Assembly: GCF_035084215.1 (NCBI RefSeq)
Contig: NC_090356.1
Span: forward strand, 17,174,001-17,238,000
Reading direction: 5' to 3'
Origin: Heptranchias perlo
Taxonomy: Eukaryota
Length of the DNA: 64,000 nt
The number at the start of each line of letters is the position of its first letter. Within the stretch, counting starts at the first letter, position 1. The notes beneath the pieces are model-generated. The model did no database searches and was not told where the DNA came from. It saw only the letters and a program-made list of their open reading frames with translations. The translations under genes were made by a program, and so were the position numbers. Shown here piece by piece: positions 1,576 through 62,055 of this stretch.

Positions 1576-2184
1576 TAACTAATGATGTTGTGCTAGCAGC
1601 AGTTGGAGTTGCTCTTTCATACAGATTACACTCAAAGTCCAGGATTCTCATTTTCTTAACTACTGTAAGGATTCCATTTTTAAAAATCTGATGAGTCAGG
1701 CATTTCCAAAATATGAAATATATAAATTTGGATTTGCTGAATTTATTACTGTAAGAATTTAGAAGAATAAAATATCAGTGTAGAATGTAAAGTCAGCGAT
1801 CAATGTCATCAGATCCACTGTGAATTCTCATGTGGTTTGTGATGATCAAAATCTGCAAAAAGCAGATAGTGGGAGGGGATTCACCTCCCTCCTTCCTGAT
1901 TGCCAGTCCAACTCCCCCCTTACATGCCCCACGATCTTTGCCAATTGCCGGGGACCGTTCCCAACGGTCCGCGGCTGCAGCCTTCTACCGCAGGCTTTCC
2001 CGCCCGGCAGCTGGCCCACCTTCAATCCGGCCGGCTGCCGGGTGGGAAACGGAATTAAAAAATGATAATGAGGTCCTGTTGTTAAACTTGGCAGAACCTC
2101 CGTGTGCCCGGAATTTCCGGGTTTCTCTCTCCGCAAACACCCCCGCCCCCCCATGTATATCAGGGCCAATGAATCACTTTGATA

Positions 2185-2410
2185 TGCCTTATTATTGTTA
2201 TGGAGACAAACACATAAACCATTTGTGCACAGTAAGATCCCACAAACAGCAATGAGATGAATAACCAGTTGATCTATTTTTTGGTGGTGTTGGTTGAGGA
2301 TACAATGTTGGCAAGGACACTGGGAGAACTCCCTGTTCTTCAAATCGTGCCGTGGCATTTTTAACAACTCGCTGATCCACCACAACAGACTGATTGGTCC
2401 TTGGTCAAAC
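2185..2410 (-). mobile_element. DeuSINE-type (SacSINE1/AmnSINE1-like) SINE fragment
   Basis: Reverse complement of gggagttctcc...caacaccaccaaaa...cattgctgtttgtgggatctt, the same core as the copies at 3785, 19795 and 27262. Confidence 0.7.
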
Positions 2411-2962
2411 TTGAGCACAGACACAAACTGCTCATATTAAATTCAGTTCAATATATTTTGCTGTTTAATATCTCAATAATGAACTCAATATAAATCAGAG
2501 TCCCTGCTGCAGCTGCCTTCTTAAGTGATATTATTAGCACGGGAGAGTCAGTTTAATACAATATAATTTAATCCTCCTGTAATCCAATCTGGTCAATTCA
2601 GAATAATCCTGCACCTGTACAGTACCCACATGGCAGATCACAAGTACTACAGTGTGCAATCATCGCACATGACACAATGTCTGGTATGAAAGTTGGCCTG
2701 GTTTGATGGCTGAGGTCACTAGGCTTTCAATTATTGACAGTAAGTATATGGCGCTCTCCTCTGCTCATGCTATGCCTATTTCTCTGCCAATTGTCCCAAT
2801 GTCCTGTGTTACAGCAATGCTTCTCTTGGGAAAACACACTGATCCTGAGTTAATCTGGGTTTCTCAGTAAAATGCATCAAACTGCAACAATTTGAATGAA
2901 GCCCAGTTAATATTTGACTGCAGTTCAGTTTCTTTTACAGTTTTACCTCTTATCTTGACACA

Positions 2963-3440
2963 GCTCCTCATGTCGCACCAAGTCCCATTCACCCATCACC
3001 CCTGTGCTTGCTGACCTTCACTGGCTCCCGCGGGGTCTGGGGCTGCCTCGATTTTAAAATTCTCATCCTTGTTTCCAAATCCCTCAATGTCCTTGCCCCT
3101 CCCTATCTCTGTTACCTCCTCCAGCCCTACAACCCTCCGAGATCTCTGCCCTCCTCCAATTCTGGCCTCTTGCACATCCCCGACTTTAATTGCTCCACCA
3201 TTGGAGGCTGTGCCTTCAGCTGCCTTGGCCCTAAGCTCTGGAATTCCCTCCCTAAACTTCTCTGCCTCTCTACTCTACTCTCTCTCCTTCTTTAAGACGC
3301 TCCTTAAAGCCTTCCTCTTTGACCTTCCTAATATCTCAAGTGGCTTGGTGTCAAATTTTGTTTGAAAACGCTCCTGTGAAGCGCCTTGGGATGTTTTATT
3401 ACGTTAAAGGCGCTATATAAATGCAAGTTGTTGTTGTTGA
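2963..3440 (+). mobile_element. L2-clade LINE 3' fragment
   Basis: Encodes DFKILILV.KSL...APPYL...AFSCLGPKLWNSLP and ends aggcgctatataaatgcaagttgttgttgttg. Confidence 0.9.
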
Positions 3441-34932: not shown

Positions 34933-37232
34933 GGCCCGGAATTTGCGCTGAGCAGTGAACAAATGGCACCCACCATTTGTTAGATTTAAACTTACCCACA
35001 AACTATCCACGGGCTTCTGGATGCCAACTTGCTGAAGTGGGGAGCCGGAAAAAGTGCAGCGTCCTCTCCCAGGCATCTGTGAGCTGTGTGAAGGAACTGT
35101 CTGTCCCCTCAAACAATCAGATTGAAGCATCCTTGACAAACCGTGCAGAGTCAGAACCAGGAAGTGCAAGCTACAACAGGAAATTCAATGTAAAATCAGT
35201 TAGAGAAAGCGAAATAAAGAGAGGGTAAGAAATATTTAAATAAAAGATGGAAATAAAAGAGACAAGGAAAAAGTAAAAAAATAAAAATTTAAAATCTTTT
35301 TTAAATGTCCAACAATAATTAAAATCGGAAGGAATGAGACTCCACATTCTTAAAAGTTAATTTTCAGTGCCAGAGGTGGCAATCATTAAGACTTACCACA
35401 CCGTTAAAAGTTAGCTTAGACCTAAAAAAACTGAGGGGAAAAAATTGAATAGGGGCCTGTTGGGGCGTAGCTGGCGTGATGTGCTATTACCCCGCACCCA
35501 ATGGCCCCTATGCAGGCAGGACACAAGTTTTGGCCCACCCGAGGACATACCTGCAAGCAGCGTTCCATTCCAGGCCTTGCACGTGGAATCAGTGCAATTC
35601 GCACTTTCCACCACCAGGGGAGCTCAATCTCTTAAAGGGAGGATGTTTCTTAGAGATCTCTTAAAGGTAGCTGGTACTTGTTATTTGCTGAAAATAACAG
35701 TCTACTGTCTGCACGGAGTCTGAACAGAGATCAGACATCGCACACGTAAAACACAGATGCAGTTGCCATCCCTATGTTTACACGCTGATGAGTTTTGTTA
35801 AAACATTGAATAAAGGTTGCACACTACTAAATCCCACATCCTCCAATCTGCATGCCAGACCTCACCTATCTGCCGATCTGAGTTGGTACCAGGCCTGTGA
35901 GAGTGCATGCACCAAGGTTCTCTGCTGATGTACTAGAGACCTTGGTGCAAGAAGTGGACAGAAGGAGGGACATCCTATATCCGCAGGGGATGGGGGGGGG
36001 GGCAAGAGACATATATCAAAAAGGCAGTGGGAAATCAATGCCAGGCGCACAGCATCATGAACATTGATGCAGTGCAGGAAGAAGTTCAATGCTTTGACAT
36101 GAGTGGTCAAGGTGAGTGAGGTCAACTGTCAAGTGGCGTCTCCTACCAACTGCACCACGCACTACACCCCCCCATCACCCACATACCAACAAACTCACTC
36201 CATCAGTACTCAACTCTTCCCCAAATGCTTCCTCTCACCCTTACATATTACCACTGTTTCAAACCGCCCACCCACAACTCATAGGCCACACACTGGTAGC
36301 TATTCAATCATGACAGGCACGCCATCCAGACATACGTCCCGTTTCTTGCAGGAGAAGGTGGCACATATCAGGAGGCAGCAAGTGGCAGGGGCATTTAGCC
36401 CCTTCAGCCTGTTCTGCCATTAAGTGAGATCATGGTGGACCTGTGCCCTAACTCGATATACCTGCCTTAGCCCTATAACCCTTAATACTCTTGGTTCACA
36501 GAAATCTATCAATCTCAGATTTAACATTCACAAGTGAGCTAGCATCAACTGCTGTTTGCAGAAGAGTGTTCCAAACATCTCCCACACTTTGCGTGTAGAA
36601 GCATTTCCTAACTTCACTCCTGCACGTCCTGGCTCTAAATGTTAGGCTGTGTCCCCGTGTCCTAGTATTCAAGTCTAGGAGACCTCCAAAAATAGTTACA
36701 AATGTCTCCGCAGCCAGAAGCAATAATCCAGCCACTAACCTGTAAATCCTGCATGGTCCCTTTAAATAGCGCTTGTGGGAGGTCCTCCAGGCACTTTAAG
36801 ACAAGTTCAGATGGTCGGGGTTAAGGCTATGCATTGAGTTGAGCCTTAAATACCAAAATGATGTCTATCACTTTAAATCAGCGTTGCACACTGATTGAAG
36901 CCATTTTCTCCCCACTTTACATGATTCAGCGGCGAAACAACAGGCGCTACACGGCTCAATTTAGCGCCCAGTCTGTATCTTTATGTAGATTACTTCATTT
37001 CCAGCTGGGCAGGAGAGCAACTTCGCGCTGGTCCATTCATTCCAACGGGGATCCAGCCAGCGAGCTGTCCTTCCTGCACAGTTTCGAAGGAGCAGGGCAT
37101 CTGATAGAGCAGCTTCCGGATTTCCCTGTTTGACTGCGCGTGTGCATTCGCCGGAAGTTGCTGTACCAGATGCGCAGAAATAACGGTGAACTCTGTTAGC
37201 CTCACCGTTATTTTATGAGCAAATTCCGGGCC
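34933..37232 (+). mobile_element. Harbinger-type non-autonomous element with a Myb/SANT remnant
   Basis: Perfect 14-bp TIR ggcccggaatttgc / gcaaattccgggcc; TSD aat on both sides. 35895-36115 encodes APRFSADVLETLVQEVDRRRDILYPQG...CRKKFNALT*VVK|gtgagt. Confidence 0.82.
36385..36665 (-). mobile_element. CR1 3' fragment nested in the Harbinger element
   Basis: TRTRGHSL...YTQSVGDVWNTLLQTAVDA...SEIDRFL. Confidence 0.8.
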
Positions 37233-37244
37233 AATATAAGTGCC

Positions 37245-39160
37245 AGCGTAGCTCACCTGGTAGCACTGTTCTGAGCTGCAAGTTTGTGGGTTGAAGGCCC
37301 ACTGCACAACTTAGGTACAAAAAATATGTTAACTTACACTACAATGTAGTACTGAGGGAGACTTCCATTGTTGGAGGTTCAGGGGGCGAAATTGTGCCTT
37401 GTAGCATCCGTTATGTAGGCGCTATGCAAACACCTGAGCCCCGAAAATGGCATCCGAGATGCGCATACATAAGTCCGGCGTGACGTGTGCAGGACACCAT
37501 CTTAGTACACCTAACGAACGCCGGCAGCATGTAGAGTAGGGAGATTATGATGTTAATCAGTGTGCAACGCTGATTTAAAGGGACCGCTGCTATTTTGGAA
37601 CTCCACACTCCAGCCAGCGCACTGTCTTAACCTCGCATAGCTAAACAGGTCTTAAAGGCATGGAGGACCCCCCCCCACCAGTGCTATTTAAAGGGATCAT
37701 TCACGAGTTACTGGTTAGTTGCTGGATTATTTGTTCTGGCTGCTGATGCATTTGTACCTGTTTTTGGAGGTTTCCTATACTATATAAAGTTACAATACTC
37801 TACAGGGAGTGGGCTGGCTAGCAGACAGGCAACAGCAAGGGCACTGGCGGAGTGGCAGGGCTGGGACAGGAGTGCTGTCATCCTGAGAGAGGACAGCAGG
37901 TTCATGTTCCATGGAACCACTGCTACTTGCTGCCTCCTGTTATGTGCCACCTTCTGCAAGAAAGCGGCAAGTGTGTCGGTGAGTGTCCTGCAAGATGTTT
38001 GAGTGGTGTGGCTGTCATGATTCAATAGTTGCCAGTGAGTGTGACCTTTGAGTTGTGGGTGTGCGGCTTGCAACAGTGGTAATGTGTGAGGGTGAGATGA
38101 AGCATCCGATTGGGAGAGATGTGTACTGATTGAAAATGTTTGTTGGTAGGTGGGTGATGGGGAATGTAGTGCTTGGAGCAGTGGATGCGACTAGTGGTGC
38201 AGTTGGTAGGATATGCTACTTGACAATTGAACTCACTCACCTTGACCACTCGTGTCAAATCATTGAACTTCTTCCTGCGCTGCATCCATGTTTGTGGTGC
38301 TATGCTCCTGGCATTGACTTTGTCCCCTGCTGCCTCCCACTGCCTCGTGAGCATATGTCTGGATGGCCTCTTGCCACCCTGCTGATACAGGATGCCCCTC
38401 CTTCTGTCCCCCTCTTCCATCAAGGCCTCTAGTGCATCATCCGAGAACCTTGGTGCACGCCCTCTCGCAGGCCCGGTACAAACTCAGATCAGTAGATTGT
38501 CCGGGTCTGGCGTGCAAATTGGAGGATGTGGGATGTAGTTTTGAGAAACCTTTATTCAATATTTTAAAATGCAACAACAGTTTTTAAACTCAACGACGAG
38601 ACCTGCATCTGTGTTTTACTTGTGCAATTTCTGATCTCCGTTCAGACCCGTATCTTATATTTTGAAAATATAAGAGTCCCACAAACTTTGAGCTGCCAAG
38701 TTGTTGCTCATTAAAAATTCCAGAGTTCCCAAAATCACCATTCTTCACTATATTGCAGCACAAATTCACTTCAAAATTGACTTCCACCACTGCTCCCCTT
38801 TAAAAGGTGCAAGCTGCCTTTAAGTGATGCTAACCACTCCTGATATTGGGGCCCCCCTGCTGGTGCATGCAGCCAATCAACAGCACAGGCAGTGCTGGCT
38901 GCACACTGCAATCATTGAAATCATCAGGCAACATGAATGTTACGTGCTGCCTGCATCGCAATCAACTGGTGCGAGTTAATCACGTACCACAATCCCAGCA
39001 CCCGTTTACGGAGCTAACCAATTTAACCCCGCATGAAATGTTAAGCTGGGTCTAAATCTGCCTGCTGTGGTCAGTTTAAAGATCCAATTACATTACTCAA
39101 AGAACAGTATTGCCCTGACAATATTCCTCCCTCAACCAACACCACCAAAAAATGGATTCA
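37245..39160 (+). mobile_element. DeuSINE-type SINE split by a DNA transposon
   Basis: Head and gtactgagggag...ggagg at 37245-37382; the SINE continues at 39031 (atgaaatgttaa...ccctcaaccaacaccacc). Confidence 0.6.
37383..39030 (-). mobile_element. Harbinger-type element with a Myb/SANT remnant
   Basis: Imperfect TIR ggggcgaaattg / caatttaacccc. ORF 38022..38423(-) gives RRRGILYQQGGKRPS...QWEA...RRKKFNDLTRVVK. The interior is homologous, in inverted orientation, to 35700-36930. Confidence 0.72.
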
Positions 39161-40015: not shown

Positions 40016-40382
40016 AGGCGCATCAGCTGCATGTACTTGTGACTGTTAGGAAGGGATTATAAAGAGTGCTGATCCCATTCTGCGACTGGCAGACTTGCCA
40101 AAGCATTCTCTCATTCTCGCATTGCAGATAAAGTGCTATCTTTAATTTTGGAGGAAACATACCAGCGTTTGGGTGGGGCAGCAGGTTACAACATAGATTT
40201 CATCTCTGTGGCTCGTGATGAATTCTAGCCAAGAGATTTCAGCTGAAAGTTTCCTTTCCCTGACGCTGTTAACTTTCCCAATGGAAAACAATTTGGATGT
40301 TTTCAGCCCTATTCCCAGTGCACATGAAATTAAAGCCCAAAAAATCCCAGAAATTGAACGTTATTAATGTCCATTACTACAT

Positions 40383-40803
40383 GAGCTGGCAAGGACCCAA
40401 TACCACAGGAGCTGACAAGGATCCAATACCACAGGAGCTGACAAGGACCCAATACCACAGGAGCTGACAAGGATCCAATACCACGGGAGCTGACAAGGAC
40501 CCAATACCATGGGAGCTGACAAGGACCCAATACCATGGGAGCTGACAAGGACCCAATACCACAGGAGCTGACAAGGACCCAATACCACAGGAGCTGACAA
40601 GGATCCAATACCACGGGAGCTGACAAGGACCCAATACCACGGGAGCTGACAAGGACCCAATACCACGGGAGCTGGCAAGGACCCAATACCACGGGAGCTG
40701 ACAAGGACCCAATACCATGGGAGCTGACAAGGACCCAATACCATGGGAGCTGACAAGGACCCAATACCACAGGAGCTGACAAAGACCCAATGCCACAGGA
40801 GCA
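40383..40803. repeat. 26-bp minisatellite, about 16 copies
   Basis: Unit gagctgacaaggacccaataccac(a/g)g or ...ccatgg, period 26. Confidence 0.95.
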
Positions 40804-41089
40804 GGATTGGATGGCTGATGTAGAGAATCAAAACATCACAGACTTGTCAATCAGCCCATCCTTAACCTCTGAGATTGTGTTTAAGAAATATTGACGATGT
40901 GTGATATGCAACATCATACAACTGTACAAGATTCCATTCCACAGTGATTGTAGCCGGCAGGTTGATAATTATAAAATCCCCTCCCCCACAAAAATGTTTA
41001 AACAACTGAGTGAATGAAGTTCATTGTTTCTGGAATCTGGCCGGTGGAGGAGGATCATTAACCCACGCTGATATAAAATGATCAAAACA

Positions 41090-46489: not shown

Positions 46490-47157
46490 CCAAATGACCA
46501 TGCCATCCTCCTCCATCGTCTCAGTTGTCCAGCTCAGTGGAACTGCCCTCACTTGGTTCCACTCTCCACTATCCAGTCGCAGCCAAAGCATCTCCAGCAA
46601 TGACTTCTCTTCCTGCCCCCACATCAATATCTCTGGAGTCTTCCAAGGATCTATCCTTCACCCCTCCTCTTCCTCATCTACATGCCGCACTTCGGCAATA
46701 TCATTTGAAGACACGGGTCAGCTTTCACATGTACGCAACGGCACCCAGATCTACCTCTCCACCACCTCTCTCAACCCCTCCGCTGCCTCTGTGTTGTCAT
46801 CCAATATCGGATGTCAGAATTTCCTCCAGTTCGATCCCGAGCTGAACTTCTGACCCTATATCCTGTCTATCACAAAGACCCCCACCTACTTCCACCTCTG
46901 TAACATTGCATGCTTCCACTCCTGTCTCAGTCCATCTCCTGCTTATCTATGCCTTTGTCACCTCCAGACTTGACTATTCCAATACACTTCTGGCCAGCCG
47001 CCCATCCTCCACCCCCCACAAACTTCAATTCATCCAAAACTCTGCTGTCCATATTCTATCCTCCACCAAGTCCCGCTCGCAAATCAGCCCTGTCCTTGCT
47101 GAGCTGCATTAGCTCCCAGGCTTCCAACACCTCCAATTTAAAATCCTTATCCTCATC
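46490..47157 (+). mobile_element. L2-clade LINE fragment
   Basis: LSGTALTWFHS, IYAFVTSRLDYSNTLL, FIQNSA and ISPVLAELH. Confidence 0.85.
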
Positions 47158-47466
47158 TGGGAAGAGAGCTAGGCACAAGAATGCCTAGATCTCTTCCCTG
47201 ATCAGCACTCTGTCTCATCTAGTCCCAGGTGCTCAAGCAGGGGGTGTCAGGCAGGAGCCTCTCCTCCAACACAAGGAGATAAAAAGAGACAAATTCATAT
47301 ATGAGGTAAGTCAGGTTTTTAAACTGAAAGCTGCACAATAGGTGTGAGGTGTTTACCGATTACCAAGATATGATGTCATGATGTGGAGATGCCGGTGATG
47401 GACTGGGGTTGACAATTGTAAACAATTTTACAACACCAAGTTATAGTCCAGCAATTTTATTTTAAA

Positions 47467-47505
47467 TTCACAAGCTTTCGGAGGCTTCCTCCTTCCTCAG
47501 GTAAA
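47467..47505 (-). ncRNA. Minimal hammerhead ribozyme motif in pLTR
   Basis: Reverse complement: tttac-CTGAGGA-a-ggagg-aag-cctcc-GAAA-gctt-gtgaa. Confidence 0.75.
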
Positions 47506-47734
47506 TGTTCAGGAGCTCCTCGAAGCCTACGCATTTATACATATAGAACAATACATGGTGTTTACAGAATGCCCCTGCAACTGCCCGTTGCCAAGGCAAT
47601 CACCGTGTTCAGACAGAGAGGTGTCTCCTGCAGAACCCCCGAATACACATTCAACAAAAAAACAAACAGGAAAAAAAACAGAGAGAGGCAGAAACATCCG
47701 GAAGGCAGAGAAAGCCAGCAAATGACCCATTATA

Positions 47735-48692
47735 TTAAAAACAGATAACATTTGTTCGCTGGTGGGGTAACGTGTAGCGTGACATGAACCCAAGATCCCG
47801 GTTGAGGCCGTCCTCATGGGTGCGGAACTTGGCTATCAATTTCTGCTCGACGATTTTGCGTTGTCGTGTGTCTCGAAGGCCGCCTTGGAGTACGCTTACC
47901 CGAAGGTCGGTGGATGAATGTCCATGACTGCTGAAGTGTTCCCCGACTGGGAGGGAACCCTCCTGTTTGGCGATTGTTGCGCGGTGTCCGTTCATCCGTT
48001 GTCGCAGCGTCTGCATGGTCTCGCCAATGTACCATGCTCTGGGGCATCCTTTCCTGCAACGTATGAGGTAGACAACGTTGGCCGAGTCACAGGAGTATGA
48101 ACCATGCACCTGGTGGGTGGTGTCCTCTCGTGTGATGGTGGTATCTGTGTCGATGATCTGGCATGTCTTGCAGAGGTTACCGTGGCAGGGTTGTGTGGTG
48201 TCGTGGACGCTGTTCTCTTGAAAGCTAGGTAATTTGCTGCGAACGATGGTCTGTTTGAGGTTGGGTGGCTGTTTAAAGGCGAGTAGTGGAGGTGTGGGGA
48301 TGGCCATAGCGAGGTGTTTGTCCTCATTGATGACATGTTGAAGGCTGCGGAGAACATGGCGTAGTTTCTCCGCTCCGGGGAAGTACTGGACGACAAAGGG
48401 TACTCTGTTGGTTGCGTCCCGTGTTAGTCTCCTGAGGAGGTCTATGCGATTTTTTGCTGTGGCCCGTCGGAACTGTCGATCGATGAGTCGAGCGTCATAT
48501 CCAGTTCTTACTAGGGCGTCTTTCTGCGTCTGTAGGTGTCCATCGCGTTCCTCCTCGTCTGAGCAGACCCTGTGTATTCGCAGGGCCTGTCCATAGGGGA
48601 TGGCCTCTTTGACGTGGTTAGGGTGGAAGCTGGAAAAGTGGAGCATCGTGAGGTTGTCCGTGGGCTTGCGGTAGAGTGAGGTGCTGAGGTGC
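47735..48692 (-). CDS. Inverted duplicate of the PLE thumb, Cys linker and GIY-YIG region (no RT core)
   Basis: ORF 47735..48727(-) matches the C-terminal ~318 aa of the + ORF except for L>Q (TLKDA to TQKDA). Confidence 0.85.
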
Positions 48693-51025
48693 TTGAGAAA
48701 CTCGGCATCACCACCAGCAACGACCAAGCTTCCCCTGGTACCACGGTTGCAACCACAGGGAAGTCTATTGTCAATTTATCCGACCACACCCTTCAACCAG
48801 ACGAAATCGAAGTTCTCAGCCGAGGGCTCAATTTCTGCCCCACTACCAAAATGGACCCCACTAGTCTCGCGGCGGACACAGAGGAATTCATCAGGAGAAT
48901 GAGGCTCCGGGAATTCTACCACAAACCCCAAGATTTCAGCAGCGAACCCAATGAGACAATCGACGATCCGGAACAGCAGACAGAGGGATCCGCGGTACAG
49001 CAACCGAAGAGGAAAGAGTCAAACTGGACTCCTCCGGAGGGTCGCTGCCCTCAGCTGGACATGTATGCTCAAGCTGTCAGGAAATGCGTCAATGCCAGAT
49101 TCATCAGCCGCACTCAGAAGACAGTCCAGAATGTCACCCGAGCACAACGCAACGCCATCAACGCTCTCAAGACCAACCGCAACATCGTCATCAAACCAGC
49201 GGACAAAGGAGGAGCCATAGTCATACAGAACAGAACAGACTATTGCAAAGAAGCATACCGACAACTGGACAACCAGGAACACTACAGACGGTTACCCGCA
49301 GATCCGACCAAAGAACACACCCACCAGCTCAACAAACTGATCAAGACCTTCGATCCAGACCTTCAAAGCATCCTACGCACTCTCATCCCACGTAATCCCC
49401 GCGTGGGAGACTTCTACTGCCTCCCAAAGATACACAAAGCCAACACACCTGGACGTCCCATCGTATCAGGCAACAGAACCCTGTGTGAGAACCTCTCTGG
49501 ATACATCGAGGGCATCCTGAAACCCATCGTACAGGGAACCCCCAGCTTCTGTCGCGACACTACAGACTTCCTACAAAAACTCAGTACCCACGGACCAGTT
49601 GAACCAGGAACACTTCTCACCACGATGGACGTCTCGGCACTATACACCAGTATCCCCCACGATGACGGCATCGCTGCGACAGCATCAATACTCAACACCA
49701 ACAACAGCCAATCTCCGGAAGCCATCCTACAACTCATCCGCTTCATCCTGGATCACAATGTCTTCACCTTCGATAACCAGTTCTTTACCCAAACACACGG
49801 AACAGCCATGGGGACCAAATTCGCACCCCAATATGCCAACATTTTCATGCACAGGTTCGAGCAGGACTTCTTCACTGCACAAGACCTCCAACCAACACTA
49901 TACACCAGATACATCGACGACATTTTCTTTCTATGGACCCACGGCAAGGAATCACTAAAGAGACTACACGATAACATCAACAAGTTCCGTCCCACCATCA
50001 AGCTCACCATGGACTACTCCTCAGAATCAGTTTCTTTCTTGGACACACGAATCTCCATCAAAGACGGGCACCTCAGCACCTCACTCTACCGCAAGCCCAC
50101 GGACAACCTCACGATGCTCCACTTTTCCAGCTTCCACCCTAACCACGTCAAAGAGGCCATCCCCTATGGACAGGCCCTGCGAATACACAGGGTCTGCTCA
50201 GACGAGGAGGAACGCGATGGACACCTACAGACGCTGAAAGACGCCCTAGTAAGAACGGGATATGACGCTCGACTCATCGATCGACAGTTCCGACGGGCCA
50301 CAGCAAAAAATCGCATAGACCTCCTCAGGAGACTAACACGGGACGCAACCAACAGAGTACCCTTTGTCGTCCAGTACTTCCCCGGAGCGGAGAAACTACG
50401 CCATGTTCTCCGCAGCCTTCAACATGTCATCAATGAGGACAAACACCTCGCTATGGCCATCCCCACACCTCCACTACTCGCCTTTAAACAGCCACCCAAC
50501 CTCAAACAGACCATCGTTCGCAGCAAATTACCTAGCTTTCAAGAGAACAGCGTCCACGACACCACACAACCCTGCCACGGTAACCTCTGCAAGACATGCC
50601 AGATCATCGACACAGATACCACCATCACACGAGAGGACACCACCCACCAGGTGCATGGTTCATACTCCTGTGACTCGGCCAACGTTGTCTACCTCATACG
50701 TTGCAGGAAAGGATGCCCCAGAGCATGGTACATTGGCGAGACCATGCAGACGCTGCGACAACGGATGAACGGACACCGCGCAACAATCGCCAAACAGGAG
50801 GGTTCCCTCCCAGTCGGGGAACACTTCAGCAGTCATGGACATTCATCCACCGACCTTCGGGTAAGCGTACTCCAAGGCGGCCTTCGAGACACACGACAAC
50901 GCAAAATCGTCGAGCAGAAATTGATAGCCAAGTTCCGCACCCATGAGGACGGCCTCAACCGGGATCTTGGGTTCATGTCACGCTACACGTTACCACACCA
51001 GCGAACAAATGTTATCTGTTTTTAA
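48689..51025 (+). CDS. PLE reverse transcriptase plus Cys linker plus GIY-YIG endonuclease (778 codons; the native start is probably lost)
   Basis: KPADKGGAIV, FYCLPKIHK, MDVSALYTSIP, GTAMGTKFAP, RYIDDIFF, LYRKPTD, PCHGNLCKTC, NVVYLIRC...YIGET...RMNGH; no stops. Confidence 0.95.
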   Translation: MLEKLGITTSNDQASPGTTVATTGKSIVNLSDHTLQPDEIEVLSRGLNFCPTTKMDPTSLAADTEEFIRRMRLREFYHKPQDFSSEPNETIDDPEQQTEGSAVQQPKRKESNWTPPEGRCPQLDMYAQAVRKCVNARFISRTQKTVQNVTRAQRNAINALKTNRNIVIKPADKGGAIVIQNRTDYCKEAYRQLDNQEHYRRLPADPTKEHTHQLNKLIKTFDPDLQSILRTLIPRNPRVGDFYCLPKIHKANTPGRPIVSGNRTLCENLSGYIEGILKPIVQGTPSFCRDTTDFLQKLSTHGPVEPGTLLTTMDVSALYTSIPHDDGIAATASILNTNNSQSPEAILQLIRFILDHNVFTFDNQFFTQTHGTAMGTKFAPQYANIFMHRFEQDFFTAQDLQPTLYTRYIDDIFFLWTHGKESLKRLHDNINKFRPTIKLTMDYSSESVSFLDTRISIKDGHLSTSLYRKPTDNLTMLHFSSFHPNHVKEAIPYGQALRIHRVCSDEEERDGHLQTLKDALVRTGYDARLIDRQFRRATAKNRIDLLRRLTRDATNRVPFVVQYFPGAEKLRHVLRSLQHVINEDKHLAMAIPTPPLLAFKQPPNLKQTIVRSKLPSFQENSVHDTTQPCHGNLCKTCQIIDTDTTITREDTTHQVHGSYSCDSANVVYLIRCRKGCPRAWYIGETMQTLRQRMNGHRATIAKQEGSLPVGEHFSSHGHSSTDLRVSVLQGGLRDTRQRKIVEQKLIAKFRTHEDGLNRDLGFMSRYTLPHQRTNVICF

Positions 51026-51254
51026 TATAATGGGTCATATGCTGGCTTTCTCTGCCTTCCGGATGTTTCTGCCTCTCTCTGTTTTTTTTCCTGTTTGTTT
51101 TTTTGTTGAATGTGTATTCGGGGGTTCTGCAGGTGACACCTCTCTGTCTGAACACGGTGATTGCCTTGGCAACGGGCAGTTGCAGGGGCATTCTGTAAAC
51201 ACCATGTATTGTTCTATATGTATAAATGCGTAGGCTTCGAGGAGCTCCTGAACA

Positions 51255-51293
51255 TTTACCTGAGGAAGGAGGAAGCCTCCGAAAGCTTGTGAA
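51255..51293 (+). ncRNA. Minimal hammerhead ribozyme motif in pLTR
   Basis: tttac-CTGAGGA-a-ggagg(aag)cctcc-GAAA-gctt-gtgaa: core CUGANGA/GAAA, 5-bp stem II, stem I tttac/gtgaa. Confidence 0.78.
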
Positions 51294-51347
51294 TTTAAAA
51301 TAAAATTGCTGGACTATAACTTGGTGTTGTAAAATTGTTTACAAGAT

Positions 51348-51572
51348 ATGATGTGGAGATGCCGGTGATGGACTGGGGTTGACAATTGTAAACAATTTTA
51401 CAACACCAAGTTATAGTCCAGCAATTTTATTTTAAATTCACAAGCTTTCGGAGGCTTCCTCCTTCGTCAGGTTCTTTCACATCGTTCACCTGACGAAGGA
51501 GGAAGCCTCCGAAAGCTTGTGAATTTAAAATAAAATTGCTGGACTATAACTTGGTGTTGTAAAATTGTTTAC
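51348..51572. mobile_element. ~225-bp non-autonomous palindromic pLTR element
   Basis: Tail, then 85-bp arms 51388-51472 and 51488-51572 around a 15-bp spacer. The outer TSD gattaccaagata is at 47358-47370 and 51573-51585. Confidence 0.92.
51485..51523 (+). ncRNA. Minimal hammerhead ribozyme motif
   Basis: ttcac-CTGACGA-a-ggagg(aag)cctcc-GAAA-gctt-gtgaa; stem I ttcac/gtgaa is perfect. Confidence 0.8.
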
Positions 51573-51638
51573 GATTACCAAGATAGGCTAATGAATTTCT
51601 TATTGTCTACAGTCATTAGGGAAACAACTTCAAAGCCT

Positions 51639-51865
51639 TAAAACAAAAGCAAAATACTGCATTTGCTGCAAATCTGAAATAAAAGCAGAAAATGCCGGAA
51701 TACTCAGCCGATCAGGCAGCATCTGTGGAGAGAGGAACAGAGTTAACATTTCAGGTCGATGAGTTCTGACAAAAGGTCATCGACCTGAAACGTTAACTCT
51801 GTTTCTCTCTCCACAGTTGCTGCCTGACTGGCTGAGTATTTCCAGCATTTTCTGTTTTTAATTTC
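51639..51865. mobile_element. Second-family palindromic element (probably PLE-derived) with a hammerhead-like motif
   Basis: Arms tgaaataaaagcagaaaatg...caggtcgatga and tcatcgacctg...ttttctgtttttaatttca; left-only tail; direct repeat ttcaaagcct at 51629-51638 and 51863-51872. Confidence 0.85.
51761..51799 (+). ncRNA. Hammerhead-like motif, core mutated (CTGACAA)
   Basis: gagtt-CTGACAA-a-aggtc(atc)gacct-GAAA-cgtt-aactc; same spacing as 51485. Confidence 0.65.
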
Positions 51866-52126
51866 AAAGCCTAGCTTATTAGCATTTTAACTACCTTTCA
51901 TCTCAGGGCCTTTTTTAAAAACTTGTGTGAATACACTTGGCTTTAAAACACATATCATAAATGCATCCCTTTTTTTAATACTTTTTGTGGGAAAATTGAC
52001 AAAACACTCCCACACGTAACAAGCACACTGTCTCACTTCTTTTCCACACACAATATAACCCTTAGATCTCTCTCAGGATCAGCATGCCGTCTCGCTGTTC
52101 CATTTAACATACAATATAAACCTACA

Positions 52127-60005: not shown

Positions 60006-60569
60006 GGGCTGAACACTCTATACAGGATGCAGAAGGAGACCTACTCTTCTTGATGGACGGTTCTGGAAGTATTTTACCCTATGAGTTCACCAGATTGAAA
60101 GAGTTTGTTGTTGATTTACTGACGCCATTCACCATAGGTGCCAGTGATGTGCAGGTTGGCTTTCTGCACATTAGTGATGACCCAGTGGTGGAGTTTCCGT
60201 TTAATAAGTACATGTCGGACACTGCTGTACAGTGGGCTCTTCTGAACATGAAGCAGAAACTGGGAGACACCAATACTGGCAAGGCACTGTCTCATGCCAA
60301 AGACACCATGTTCACACAGAAAGCAGGTGCCAGACCAGATGTCCCAAAGGTCTTGGTGTGGCTGACAGATGGGGTATCATCAGACGACATATCACAGCCC
60401 ATCCAGCTCCTCAAGGAACTCGGGGTTACAATTTTCGTTGTTAGCACAGGGAGGGGCAATTACATTGAACTGAAGGCTGCAGCTAGTGAACCATCAGAAA
60501 GCCACCTGTATTACGTAGATCCCGATGATATGTATGTTATTACTGAGGAGCTGCGTAACGAAATTCTAG
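60006..60569 (+). CDS. VWA1: VWA1 exon 2, von Willebrand factor A domain
   Basis: Acceptor ttctccccttcccccag|, donor |gtatgt; 564 nt, phase 1-1. GDLLFLMDGSGS (MIDAS DxSxS), GDTNTGKAL, GARPDVPKVLVWLTDG and VSTGRGNY.EL.AAAS.P.E.HL closely parallel vertebrate VWA1/WARP. Confidence 0.93.
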
Positions 60570-60683
60570 GTATGTTCATGTTACAGTCATCACTTCCATA
60601 CAATTGTTTTCAGCTGGGGTTAAGGTACTTTCTCCCAATCCCTTTATCTTCACCATCTGTCATTGGGGGGAGCAGAACTACCT

Positions 60684-61497
60684 CTCAGCTCTGTGACTGG
60701 GGAGAGGGCGAGCAGTTCCCAGGGCACTGTGTGTGCAATTCTGTGACTGGGGAGGAGGTGAGCAGCTCCCAGGGCAATGTTTGTGCAGCTCTGTGACTGG
60801 GGAGGGGGCAAGCAGCTCCCAGGGCACTGTTTGTGCAGCTGTGTGACTGGGGAGGAGGCAAGCAGCTCCCAGGGCACAGTGCGCGCAGCTATGTGACTGG
60901 GGAGAGGGCGAGCAGCTTCCAGCGCTCTGTGTGTGCAGCTCTGTGACTGGGGAGAGGGCGAGCAGCTCCCAGGGCACTGTGTGTGCAGCTCTGTGACTGG
61001 GGAGAGGGCCAGCAGCTTCCAGCGCTCTGTGTGTGCAGCTCTGTGACTGGGGAGGAGGCGAGCAGCTCCCAGGGCACTGTGTGTGCAGCTGTGTGACTGG
61101 GGAGAGGGCGAGCAGCTCCCAGCGCTCTGTGTGTGCAGCTCTGTGACTGGGGAGGAGGCGAGCAGCTCCCAGGGCACTGTGTGTGCAGCTCTGTGACTGG
61201 GGAGAGGGCGAGCAGCTCCCAGCGCTCTGTGTGTGAAGCTCTGTGACTGGGGAGAGGGCGAGCAGCTTCCAGCACTCTGTGTGTGCAGCTCTATGACTGG
61301 GGAGGGGGTGAGCAGTTCCCAAGGCACTGTGTGTGCAGCTCTGTGACTGGGGAGGGGGTGAGCAGTTCCCATGGCACTGTGTGTGCAGCTCTGTGACTGG
61401 GGAGAGAGCGAGCAGCTCCCAGCGCACTGTGTGTGCAGCTCTTTGACAGAGGTGGGAGAGGGCGAGCAGTTCCCAGGACTTTGTGTGTGCAGCTCTG
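60684..61497. repeat. 50-bp minisatellite, about 16 copies, in VWA1 intron 2
   Basis: gtgactgg recurs exactly every 50 nt from 60693 to 61400; unit ctgtgactggggagagggcgagcagctcccagggcactgtgtgtgcagct. Confidence 0.95.
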
Positions 61498-62055
61498 CAA
61501 CAAAGGGCCAAGGAGACCAGATCTCAGGCGTCCAATGCCGGTTGTTGGTTGCTGGATGGAGATGACCTGTACGTTCTGTACAGTTCTCTATCAATGACGA
61601 TTCTTGTATTTAAGGTTATGTTATAGTTTAAAATATCTGATTCAAAGTATGAAGCAAGACTTCTTGGACTCTTCGGTAGGTCATTGAAGTACTTTTGGGC
61701 AGTTTTTGGACAGGCCTTTACCTGGAATAGCTGCTCAGACTGGGCACGGGGATTGTAAATGCTCCAGTAAATGTAGAATCTGCTGGTGGACAAACTATTG
61801 TAAGGTGGGTTAATGAGGAGCTTTTACTTGTTTAAAACTTTAATTGAAGTAGATTATTTAGTGCTGAACCATTCACATCTTTAGGTTAGTACATCATTAA
61901 TCATGTGATTGTACCTCTTAGTAAAAGGACACAAGAGCCAATCTTTTTAGGACGACATATCCCTTTAAAATATCCAAAGAATCAAAAGTATTTAAAATAA
62001 CTATATAGGGAAATATTTCTGCACAAATTAAAAACATGTTTGCAGCAATATAACA

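Follow-up and report, generated by a model that had tools for sequence, protein, structure and literature searches.

A one-tailed inverted Penelope-like insertion in Heptranchias perlo and its probable origin by double target-primed reverse transcription on one RNA

The 64,000-nucleotide stretch of Heptranchias perlo DNA analyzed here (contig NC_090356.1, positions 17,174,001 to 17,238,000; called the window, in whose coordinates positions are given) contains a Penelope-like retroelement, element A, that is one insertion of two 5'-truncated copies lying head to head inside a 12-13-bp target duplication. This insertion was probably made by double target-primed reverse transcription, with both target strands priming on one RNA. 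We base this reading on features that are observed directly in element A and its relatives, namely their anatomy, the single tail per insertion, the 12-bp duplication, the symmetric target, microhomology and polymorphisms shared between arms. A dimer of the element's protein, which combines a reverse transcriptase (RT) with a GIY-YIG-type endonuclease, would bind the sequence CnnTGYY-N12-RRCAnnG, nick both strands and leave 3' overhangs of 12 nt. Each overhang would then anneal by 1-4 bases to the element RNA and prime synthesis of complementary DNA (cDNA); one start would lie at the tail base (offset -3 to +3 from the element's 3' end) and the other at the far end of the tail (+34 to +40), about 37 nt apart. 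The same RNA would be copied from both starts, the outer cDNA probably displacing the inner one, and the cDNA 3' ends would be joined via microhomologies of 1-6 bp and filled in.

The arms of element A (left, 47416-48692, reverse strand; right, 50068-51344, forward strand) are reverse complements of each other over 1277 bp, without gaps and with 99.6% identity, which is far above chance (BLAST E 0.0). The original prediction, made from the sequence alone, had recognized this inverted repeat at the same coordinates and had counted about five substitutions by eye. Exact alignment, the check it had asked for, gives exactly five, including the already noted change at 50235 that results in TLKDA in the right arm versus TQKDA in the left. 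Relative to the family unit of 3079 bp, the left arm is a 5'-truncated copy of positions 1788-3079 with its 3' end outward, while the right arm ends at a tail-less 3' end whose last 3 bases are common to the duplication. A tail of 39 nt (47377-47415, reverse strand) is present at the left end only, as had been seen before; depending on whether counting starts at 47375 or 47377, this extension comprises 39-41 nt. Its sequence is that of the 39 nt which follow the element's 3' end in tandem copies and lead into the start codon of the open reading frame (ORF). Exact 13-bp target-site duplications flank the whole at 47364-47376 (best 12-bp register 47365-47376) and 51342-51354 (both forward strand), and the final 2 bases of the left one also match the template just beyond the tail. 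The arms meet at a head-to-head inversion junction with 2-bp microhomology (48691-48692), and microhomology at the two outer, priming ends amounts to 3 and 2 bp. Each arm carries a minimal type I hammerhead ribozyme motif (47466-47506, reverse strand; 51254-51294, forward strand) of the kind described in PMC4209133. The proposal that both outer ends are element 3' ends and that two priming events occurred is supported, as both ends behave as priming sites. The 13-bp duplication, the microhomology at the inversion junction, the hammerheads, the loss of part of the ORF and the nesting in a second element, element B, are additions to that earlier picture.

Element A is an ordinary product of its family rather than an oddity, and its locus is ordinary as well. 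The middle of the ORF yields 1635 candidate matches in the 3.25-Gb genome, and the 40 that were scored are about 99.5% alike or better. An exact 36-base word from the 3' end occurs 45,895 times genome-wide and continues into the tail in 21,530 cases (47%), from which we estimate a family size of about 23,000 insertions. Besides the window, 125 loci were examined, 35 of them found via the ORF and 90 via the tail. Each of the 71 inverted insertions with a duplication has one tailed and one tail-less end. Since most loci had been sampled via the tail, two unbiased subsets matter here: all 16 large insertions found through the ORF, and thus chosen regardless of the tail, are one-tailed, and in a tail-blind list (the first 100 matches to the 3' end on C1) 23 of 24 adjacent pairs are discordant and none is tail-less, the single double-tailed pair being an internal tandem junction. 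The offsets of the outer ends cluster at -3 to +3 and +34 to +40, with modes at 0 and +37. The exact duplication (n = 71) is 11 bp long in 1 case, 12 bp in 44, 13 bp in 17 and 14-16 bp in 9, the spread expected from a fixed length of 12 bp plus chance matches (an ambiguous pairing of 617 bp, L066, was left out of the counts of duplication length, target profile and arm length).

The target profile and the microhomologies were derived from sites with an exact 12-bp duplication (43, of which 41 are unique). The 41 unique sites give the consensus CnnTGYY-N12-RRCAnnG, with T at position 5 and A at position 8 inside. Dyad symmetry is pronounced: the left half correlates with the reverse-complemented right half with r = 0.82, a value reached in 0 of 5000 shuffles. 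In a leave-one-out test the true register ranked first of 91 in 25 of the 41 sites and among the top five in 37. True sites average 5.5 bits on the family profile; that of element A scores 2.7 bits, with the 95th percentile of the background at 0.4. The same 12-bp site within copies of host repeats has been struck independently (L038 and L059; L100, L122, L081 and L056), the inner junctions being different, which shows a real site preference. Identical arms and a one-sided tail would also arise if the endonuclease cut a palindromic or concatemeric DNA intermediate at either side of the tail and the piece were then joined to a staggered target (PMC8557442), and earlier work cited in PMC11167929 reports that a Penelope endonuclease needed the tail to cut plasmids. 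This explanation is weakened because the tail borders of the element are unlike the target: cores that end at 0 or start at +1 never exceed -1 bit, and the core ending at +38 scores -0.8 bits against the mean of 5.5 for true sites. Moreover, the ends shift by a few bases in step with the microhomology, and RT starts in vitro map to the tail borders (PMC11167929). We consider resolution of a DNA intermediate rather improbable.

Microhomology between target and template has a mean of 1.55 bp (n = 42) at one outer end and 1.33 bp (n = 39) at the other, compared with 0.56 and 0.46 bp after permutation (0 of 5000 permutations as high; ends with untemplated gaps, 1 and 4, were excluded from the means). 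The 21 inversion junctions show 1-6 bp of overlap in 13 cases, blunt joining in 3 and inserted bases in 5, and the tail is located on the shorter arm in 12 of 21 loci (element A included) and on the longer one in 9 (three further loci were unresolved in this survey). If a single primed cDNA folded back and copied itself by self-priming, akin to the idea put forward in PMC3846280, the arms would be identical at birth and the junctions would carry microhomology. The fold-back copy, however, can only form the shorter arm and has no way to acquire a tail missing from its template. With 12 of 21 tails on the shorter arm this possibility is largely refuted; it survives only with an antisense RNA as template, and we regard it as very unlikely.

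Priming of both cDNAs on one RNA is indicated by the polymorphisms. Summing the longest inverted pair of each of 21 loci gives 36.0 kb, in which the arms differ at a single polymorphic site, whereas the 2.77 differences per kb found between loci predict about 100. The polymorphism comparison omitted duplicate loci that overlap others, a stretch of low complexity (unit 2760-2860) and bases close to gaps, and a comparison of L111 with a separate older copy was kept out of the sum. Tandem copies likewise share polymorphisms, which a circular template, as proposed in PMC4209133, would explain. Arm lengths are coupled, with both arms exceeding 400 bp in 4 of 47 cases against 0.39 expected, and only one arm in 1 (three loci were skipped). 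In element A the arms differ at right-arm positions 50235, 50257, 50995, 51039 and 51134 (corresponding to 47626, 47721/51039, 47765/50995, 48503 and 48525). With five differences in 1160 bp scored, compared with 0-2 in 16 of the 21 loci, it is among the more diverged copies. All five differences are private, the odd letter (three in the left arm, two in the right) occurring in 0 of 54-68 other segments. The original prediction had left open whether such differences reflect two template RNAs or later mutation; two different templates are rejected, because the mismatches are private and arms throughout the family share their polymorphisms, and the differences likely arose at or after insertion. 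A related explanation, in which each subunit primes on a separate RNA molecule and both RNAs stem from the same donor locus, accounts for the shared polymorphisms and for microhomology at both ends and does so without strand displacement. If a symmetric dimer binds two equal RNAs at a symmetric site, however, there is no reason for discordant ends in 71 of 71 cases. As the genome contains many intact copies (24 whole ORFs among the 21 loci sampled), templates should also be mixed in some insertions, whereas one polymorphic difference is seen against about 100 expected. We therefore give this variant only a small chance.

Several observations weigh against double priming on one RNA. Shared polymorphisms would be expected equally from two RNAs of one donor locus or from gene conversion between arms. 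There are 76 terminal ends without a partner; these belong to insertions that are not inverted, to the edges of loci, to duplicates or to insertions whose duplication has decayed. Among the non-inverted insertions, few retain a remnant of a second cDNA (L020, L079 and L112, 6-8 bp). In L020 (4525-4531), a non-inverted tandem insertion with its 5' end at unit 3022, where the hammerhead cuts, 8 bp of the tail-less end remain in inverted orientation. As a test of generality, 30 loci of another hairpin family were examined, which is older and no longer shows clean duplications; the first matcher paired 1 of them and a second matcher 7. Six of these seven pairs are one-tailed, and one is double-tailed and has no duplication. 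Finally, all five arm differences of element A are transversions, versus 57 of 160 private changes family-wide. Such a pattern has a chance of about 0.006, at one of about ten loci looked at; it may be due to RT error, damage or assembly error.

The transversions would also be compatible with an assembly chimera at 48692, and assembly is difficult for a young repeat present in tens of thousands of copies. On the other hand, one target duplication encloses both arms, the tail by which the arms differ has the same placement at 70 other loci, and the microhomology at 48692 is typical of the family; a mirror artefact makes none of these features. Short reads were available as contigs from four DNA runs of one sample. 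A 368-nt contig recovered in all four runs matches 47100-47399 without differences, reaching only 23 bases into the element (bridging mark, 31 bases). At 100% likeness, and with contigs of a kind that drops rare variants, none among those listed spans 48692, and the stretch 48505-48524, which lies between two private letters, has zero depth. Given the single duplication, the tail and the recurrence of the design, a chimeric origin of the inverted repeat appears exceedingly improbable.

The protein of element A is encoded in a frame that is open from stop to stop at 48680-51025 (781 amino acids), the element-derived part beginning at 48692 and comprising 778 codons including the stop. The original prediction of a 778-codon ORF free of stops is correct as far as the open frame is concerned, although it is not a whole ORF: the complete family ORF, which begins directly after the tail, encodes 902 amino acids, and the remnant in element A (48692-51025, forward strand) covers residues 126-902, having lost residues 1-125 and the upstream repeat. 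This copy is therefore likely dead. It also carries three private missense changes when compared with all 24 whole ORFs from 21 loci. Core RT motifs from RPIVS to RYIDD are encoded at 49454-49921 (forward strand), and the protein matches RVT_1 (Pfam, E 3e-10). An AlphaFold2 model of the whole family ORF (predicted local distance difference test score, pLDDT, 87.5), which has N-terminal helices at residues 6-128, finds telomerase RTs as its 11 best Foldseek matches, in line with the earlier view of a young Penelope-like element. Toward the C-terminus, 50684-50926 (forward strand) encodes the motifs VVYLIRC...WYIGET...H...H, which we take to be the form typical of GIY-YIG endonucleases. A Pfam scan of the element A protein did not call the GIY-YIG domain, while many relatives of the protein carry PF01541. 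A sequence search of the Protein Data Bank (PDB) returned no relative (best E 0.86). Among the 120 homologs listed, the closest named proteins are from Heptranchias, Scyliorhinus and Mustelus (80-96%), followed by turtles (43-44%), and none bears a clade name.

Element A is probably a canonical endonuclease-bearing Penelope-like element of the Neptune clade. A single ORF with a telomerase-related RT and GIY-YIG motifs at the C-terminus, partial tandem copies (forming pseudo-long terminal repeats, pLTRs) and inverted copies with a tail of 30-40 bp, and a minimal hammerhead in the repeat, recognized by predicted motif and fold, are all present. The predicted ribozyme motif has 211 matches, over which its stems covary, with stem II varying between G-C, G-U and A-U and stem I between U-G and C-G. 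Rfam reports no hammerhead, only hairpin look-alikes below gathering scores. The cysteine-rich linker announced in the original prediction is indeed found before the endonuclease as CX4CxxC (CHGNLCKTC, 50573-50599, forward strand), a zinc-finger-like sequence matching the CX2-5CxxC linker between RT and endonuclease that is diagnostic for Neptune and shared with Nematis (PMC8557442). Penelope/Poseidon elements have no such linker before GIY-YIG, and Naiad/Chlamys elements possess an N-terminal endonuclease; both assignments were rejected. The assignment to Neptune, a paraphyletic clade (PMC8557442), is based on the zinc-linker motif rather than on a reference tree and is probable because the linker excludes Poseidon and only Neptune and Poseidon have been found among Penelope-like elements of vertebrates (bioRxiv 10.64898/2026.07.22.740005).

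Small hairpins are a further product of the family. A self-copying hairpin or miniature inverted-repeat transposable element (MITE), the type that element B might suggest, would repeat one inner junction at many loci. All 45 inner junctions are unique, and the small hairpins are thus independent products and not MITEs. In 29 of the 45 small hairpins (L009-L125) the shorter arm stops 75-105 bp from the 3' end; counted likewise, the 5' edge of the hammerhead lies at 91 bp and its cut site at 56 bp. Ending at the 5' edge, past the cut site, implies that the template was uncleaved there and that the RT tends to stop a short way beyond the ribozyme. At three loci (L007:4362-4659, L091 and L085) unrelated DNA of 139-298 bp has been captured between the arms at the inversion junction. 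This suggests that, in shark genomes, many of the small hairpin repeats stem from aborted double priming rather than being MITEs of DNA transposons.

Element B (51348-51572) is a 225-bp hairpin of a sister subfamily, with the tail on its left and arms of about 87 bp with hammerhead motifs. It is flanked by exact 14-bp duplications at 47357-47370 and 51572-51585 (forward strand). Element A sits 7 bp inside the tail end of element B, its right duplication overlapping the first 7 bases of the latter, and from the nesting of the flanking duplications it follows that A landed after B was in place. Genome-wide, this nested-junction pattern has 3 matches including the present locus, with about 0.3 expected, an estimate that does not count the older relatives which the other two junctions adjoin. 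Self-targeting of the tail was rejected, the nested junctions being at most a mild excess, and element A likely landed in element B by chance use of a fair target site. The target of element B itself scores only 0.3 bits. A third family copy at 18811-19117, a small hairpin with the tail on the left and a middle that reads N, is flanked by 12-bp duplications (18811-18822 and 19106-19117) and has a site score of -0.6 bits. The second, older hairpin family (1876 candidates, 87-94% alike) is represented at 51639-51866 by a hairpin with an extension of about 36 nt on one end, a hammerhead-like core and a 10-bp direct repeat. A von Willebrand factor A domain the size of an exon (Pfam E 1e-40) is encoded at 60038-60520 (forward strand), about 8.5 kb downstream. 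The corresponding gene may contain the insertion or begin downstream of it, which bears on read-through of element A, predicted earlier to yield about 1.3 kb of double-stranded RNA; the flank was found in none of the RNA runs. Long diverged inverted arms at 35713-38651 surround a Myb/SANT-like ORF piece (38025-38483, reverse strand) and possibly represent a decayed Harbinger-type DNA transposon. Repeat units of 26 bp and 50 bp form tandem arrays at 40293-40864 and 60586-61535, and several RT fragments of long interspersed nuclear elements (LINEs) occur elsewhere in the window.

The integration of Penelope-like elements, the one-sided tail and the inverted copies have been called an open question (PMC8557442; PMC11167929). 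The family described here is young and abundant enough to read the integration reaction from its products and makes this question directly testable: it defines a substrate, namely a symmetric site of 28 bp with a stagger of 12 nt, and makes three yes-or-no predictions that the in vitro system already in use could answer: paired but unequal starts, a fixed overhang and one RNA per insertion. More tentatively, concerted double priming might be the standard reaction of Penelope-like elements, ordinary one-sided target priming being unused, an idea that we consider possible but somewhat more likely to be wrong than right. The dimer would then cut a palindromic site in the manner of homing nucleases or transposases, with two RT centres 37 nt apart on one, possibly circular, RNA. 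If so, a single geometry would account for tail, inverted copy, hairpin stubs and tandems, and a copy would be non-inverted where one cDNA had been lost.

Published work already describes inverted, one-tailed insertions flanked by a short duplication (PMC8557442; PMC3846280). In the literature searched we found no dyad-symmetric target, fixed 12-bp stagger, obligate one-tail rule or single-template test, although older papers and Repbase reports may contain parts of this. According to PMC8557442, Neptune-clade elements share with our family a single ORF, the RT, the CX2-5CxxC linker, the C-terminal GIY-YIG domain, partial tandems, an inverted 5'-truncated copy at the 5' end, a 30-40-bp tail often at one end, and a hammerhead in the repeat. 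There, the tail is 'often' at one end and is ascribed to resolution by the endonuclease, whereas here it is at exactly one end in 71 of 71 cases; a role in targeting repeats was hypothesized for the linker, whereas here the target is a dyad-symmetric consensus and not a microsatellite; and the duplication is fixed here at 12 bp. Penelope of Adineta vaga (PMC3846280) likewise forms inverted pLTR insertions with 8-10-bp duplications, microhomology at junctions and an optional 31-bp tail on one inverted repeat. It differs by few copies, a variable duplication, the proposal of self-priming on an antisense template and, in the portion of that paper at hand, the lack of a target consensus.

A counterpart studied in vitro is the Poseidon element PAc of Anolis: its protein, a predicted dimer, nicks and extends both strands and uses two internal RT starts that bound the tail, and a hammerhead lies beside the ORF start (PMC11167929). 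The double-priming scheme fits these data and departs from them in start-site microhomology and target symmetry. PAc belongs to another clade without the cysteine linker and shows an ATT preference only, its start sites are said to be non-homologous to the cut DNA, and the available text of PMC11167929 reports no start-site pairing, stagger length or single template. A further parallel exists outside the Penelope-like elements. In twin priming of LINE-1, another cDNA is started on the same RNA by the second target strand, and the resulting inversion is joined by microhomology inside one duplication. There, the second primer anneals at an internal position, leaving two parts without overlap, whereas in the family studied here two fixed sites close to the 3' end serve as starts and the same sequence is duplicated.

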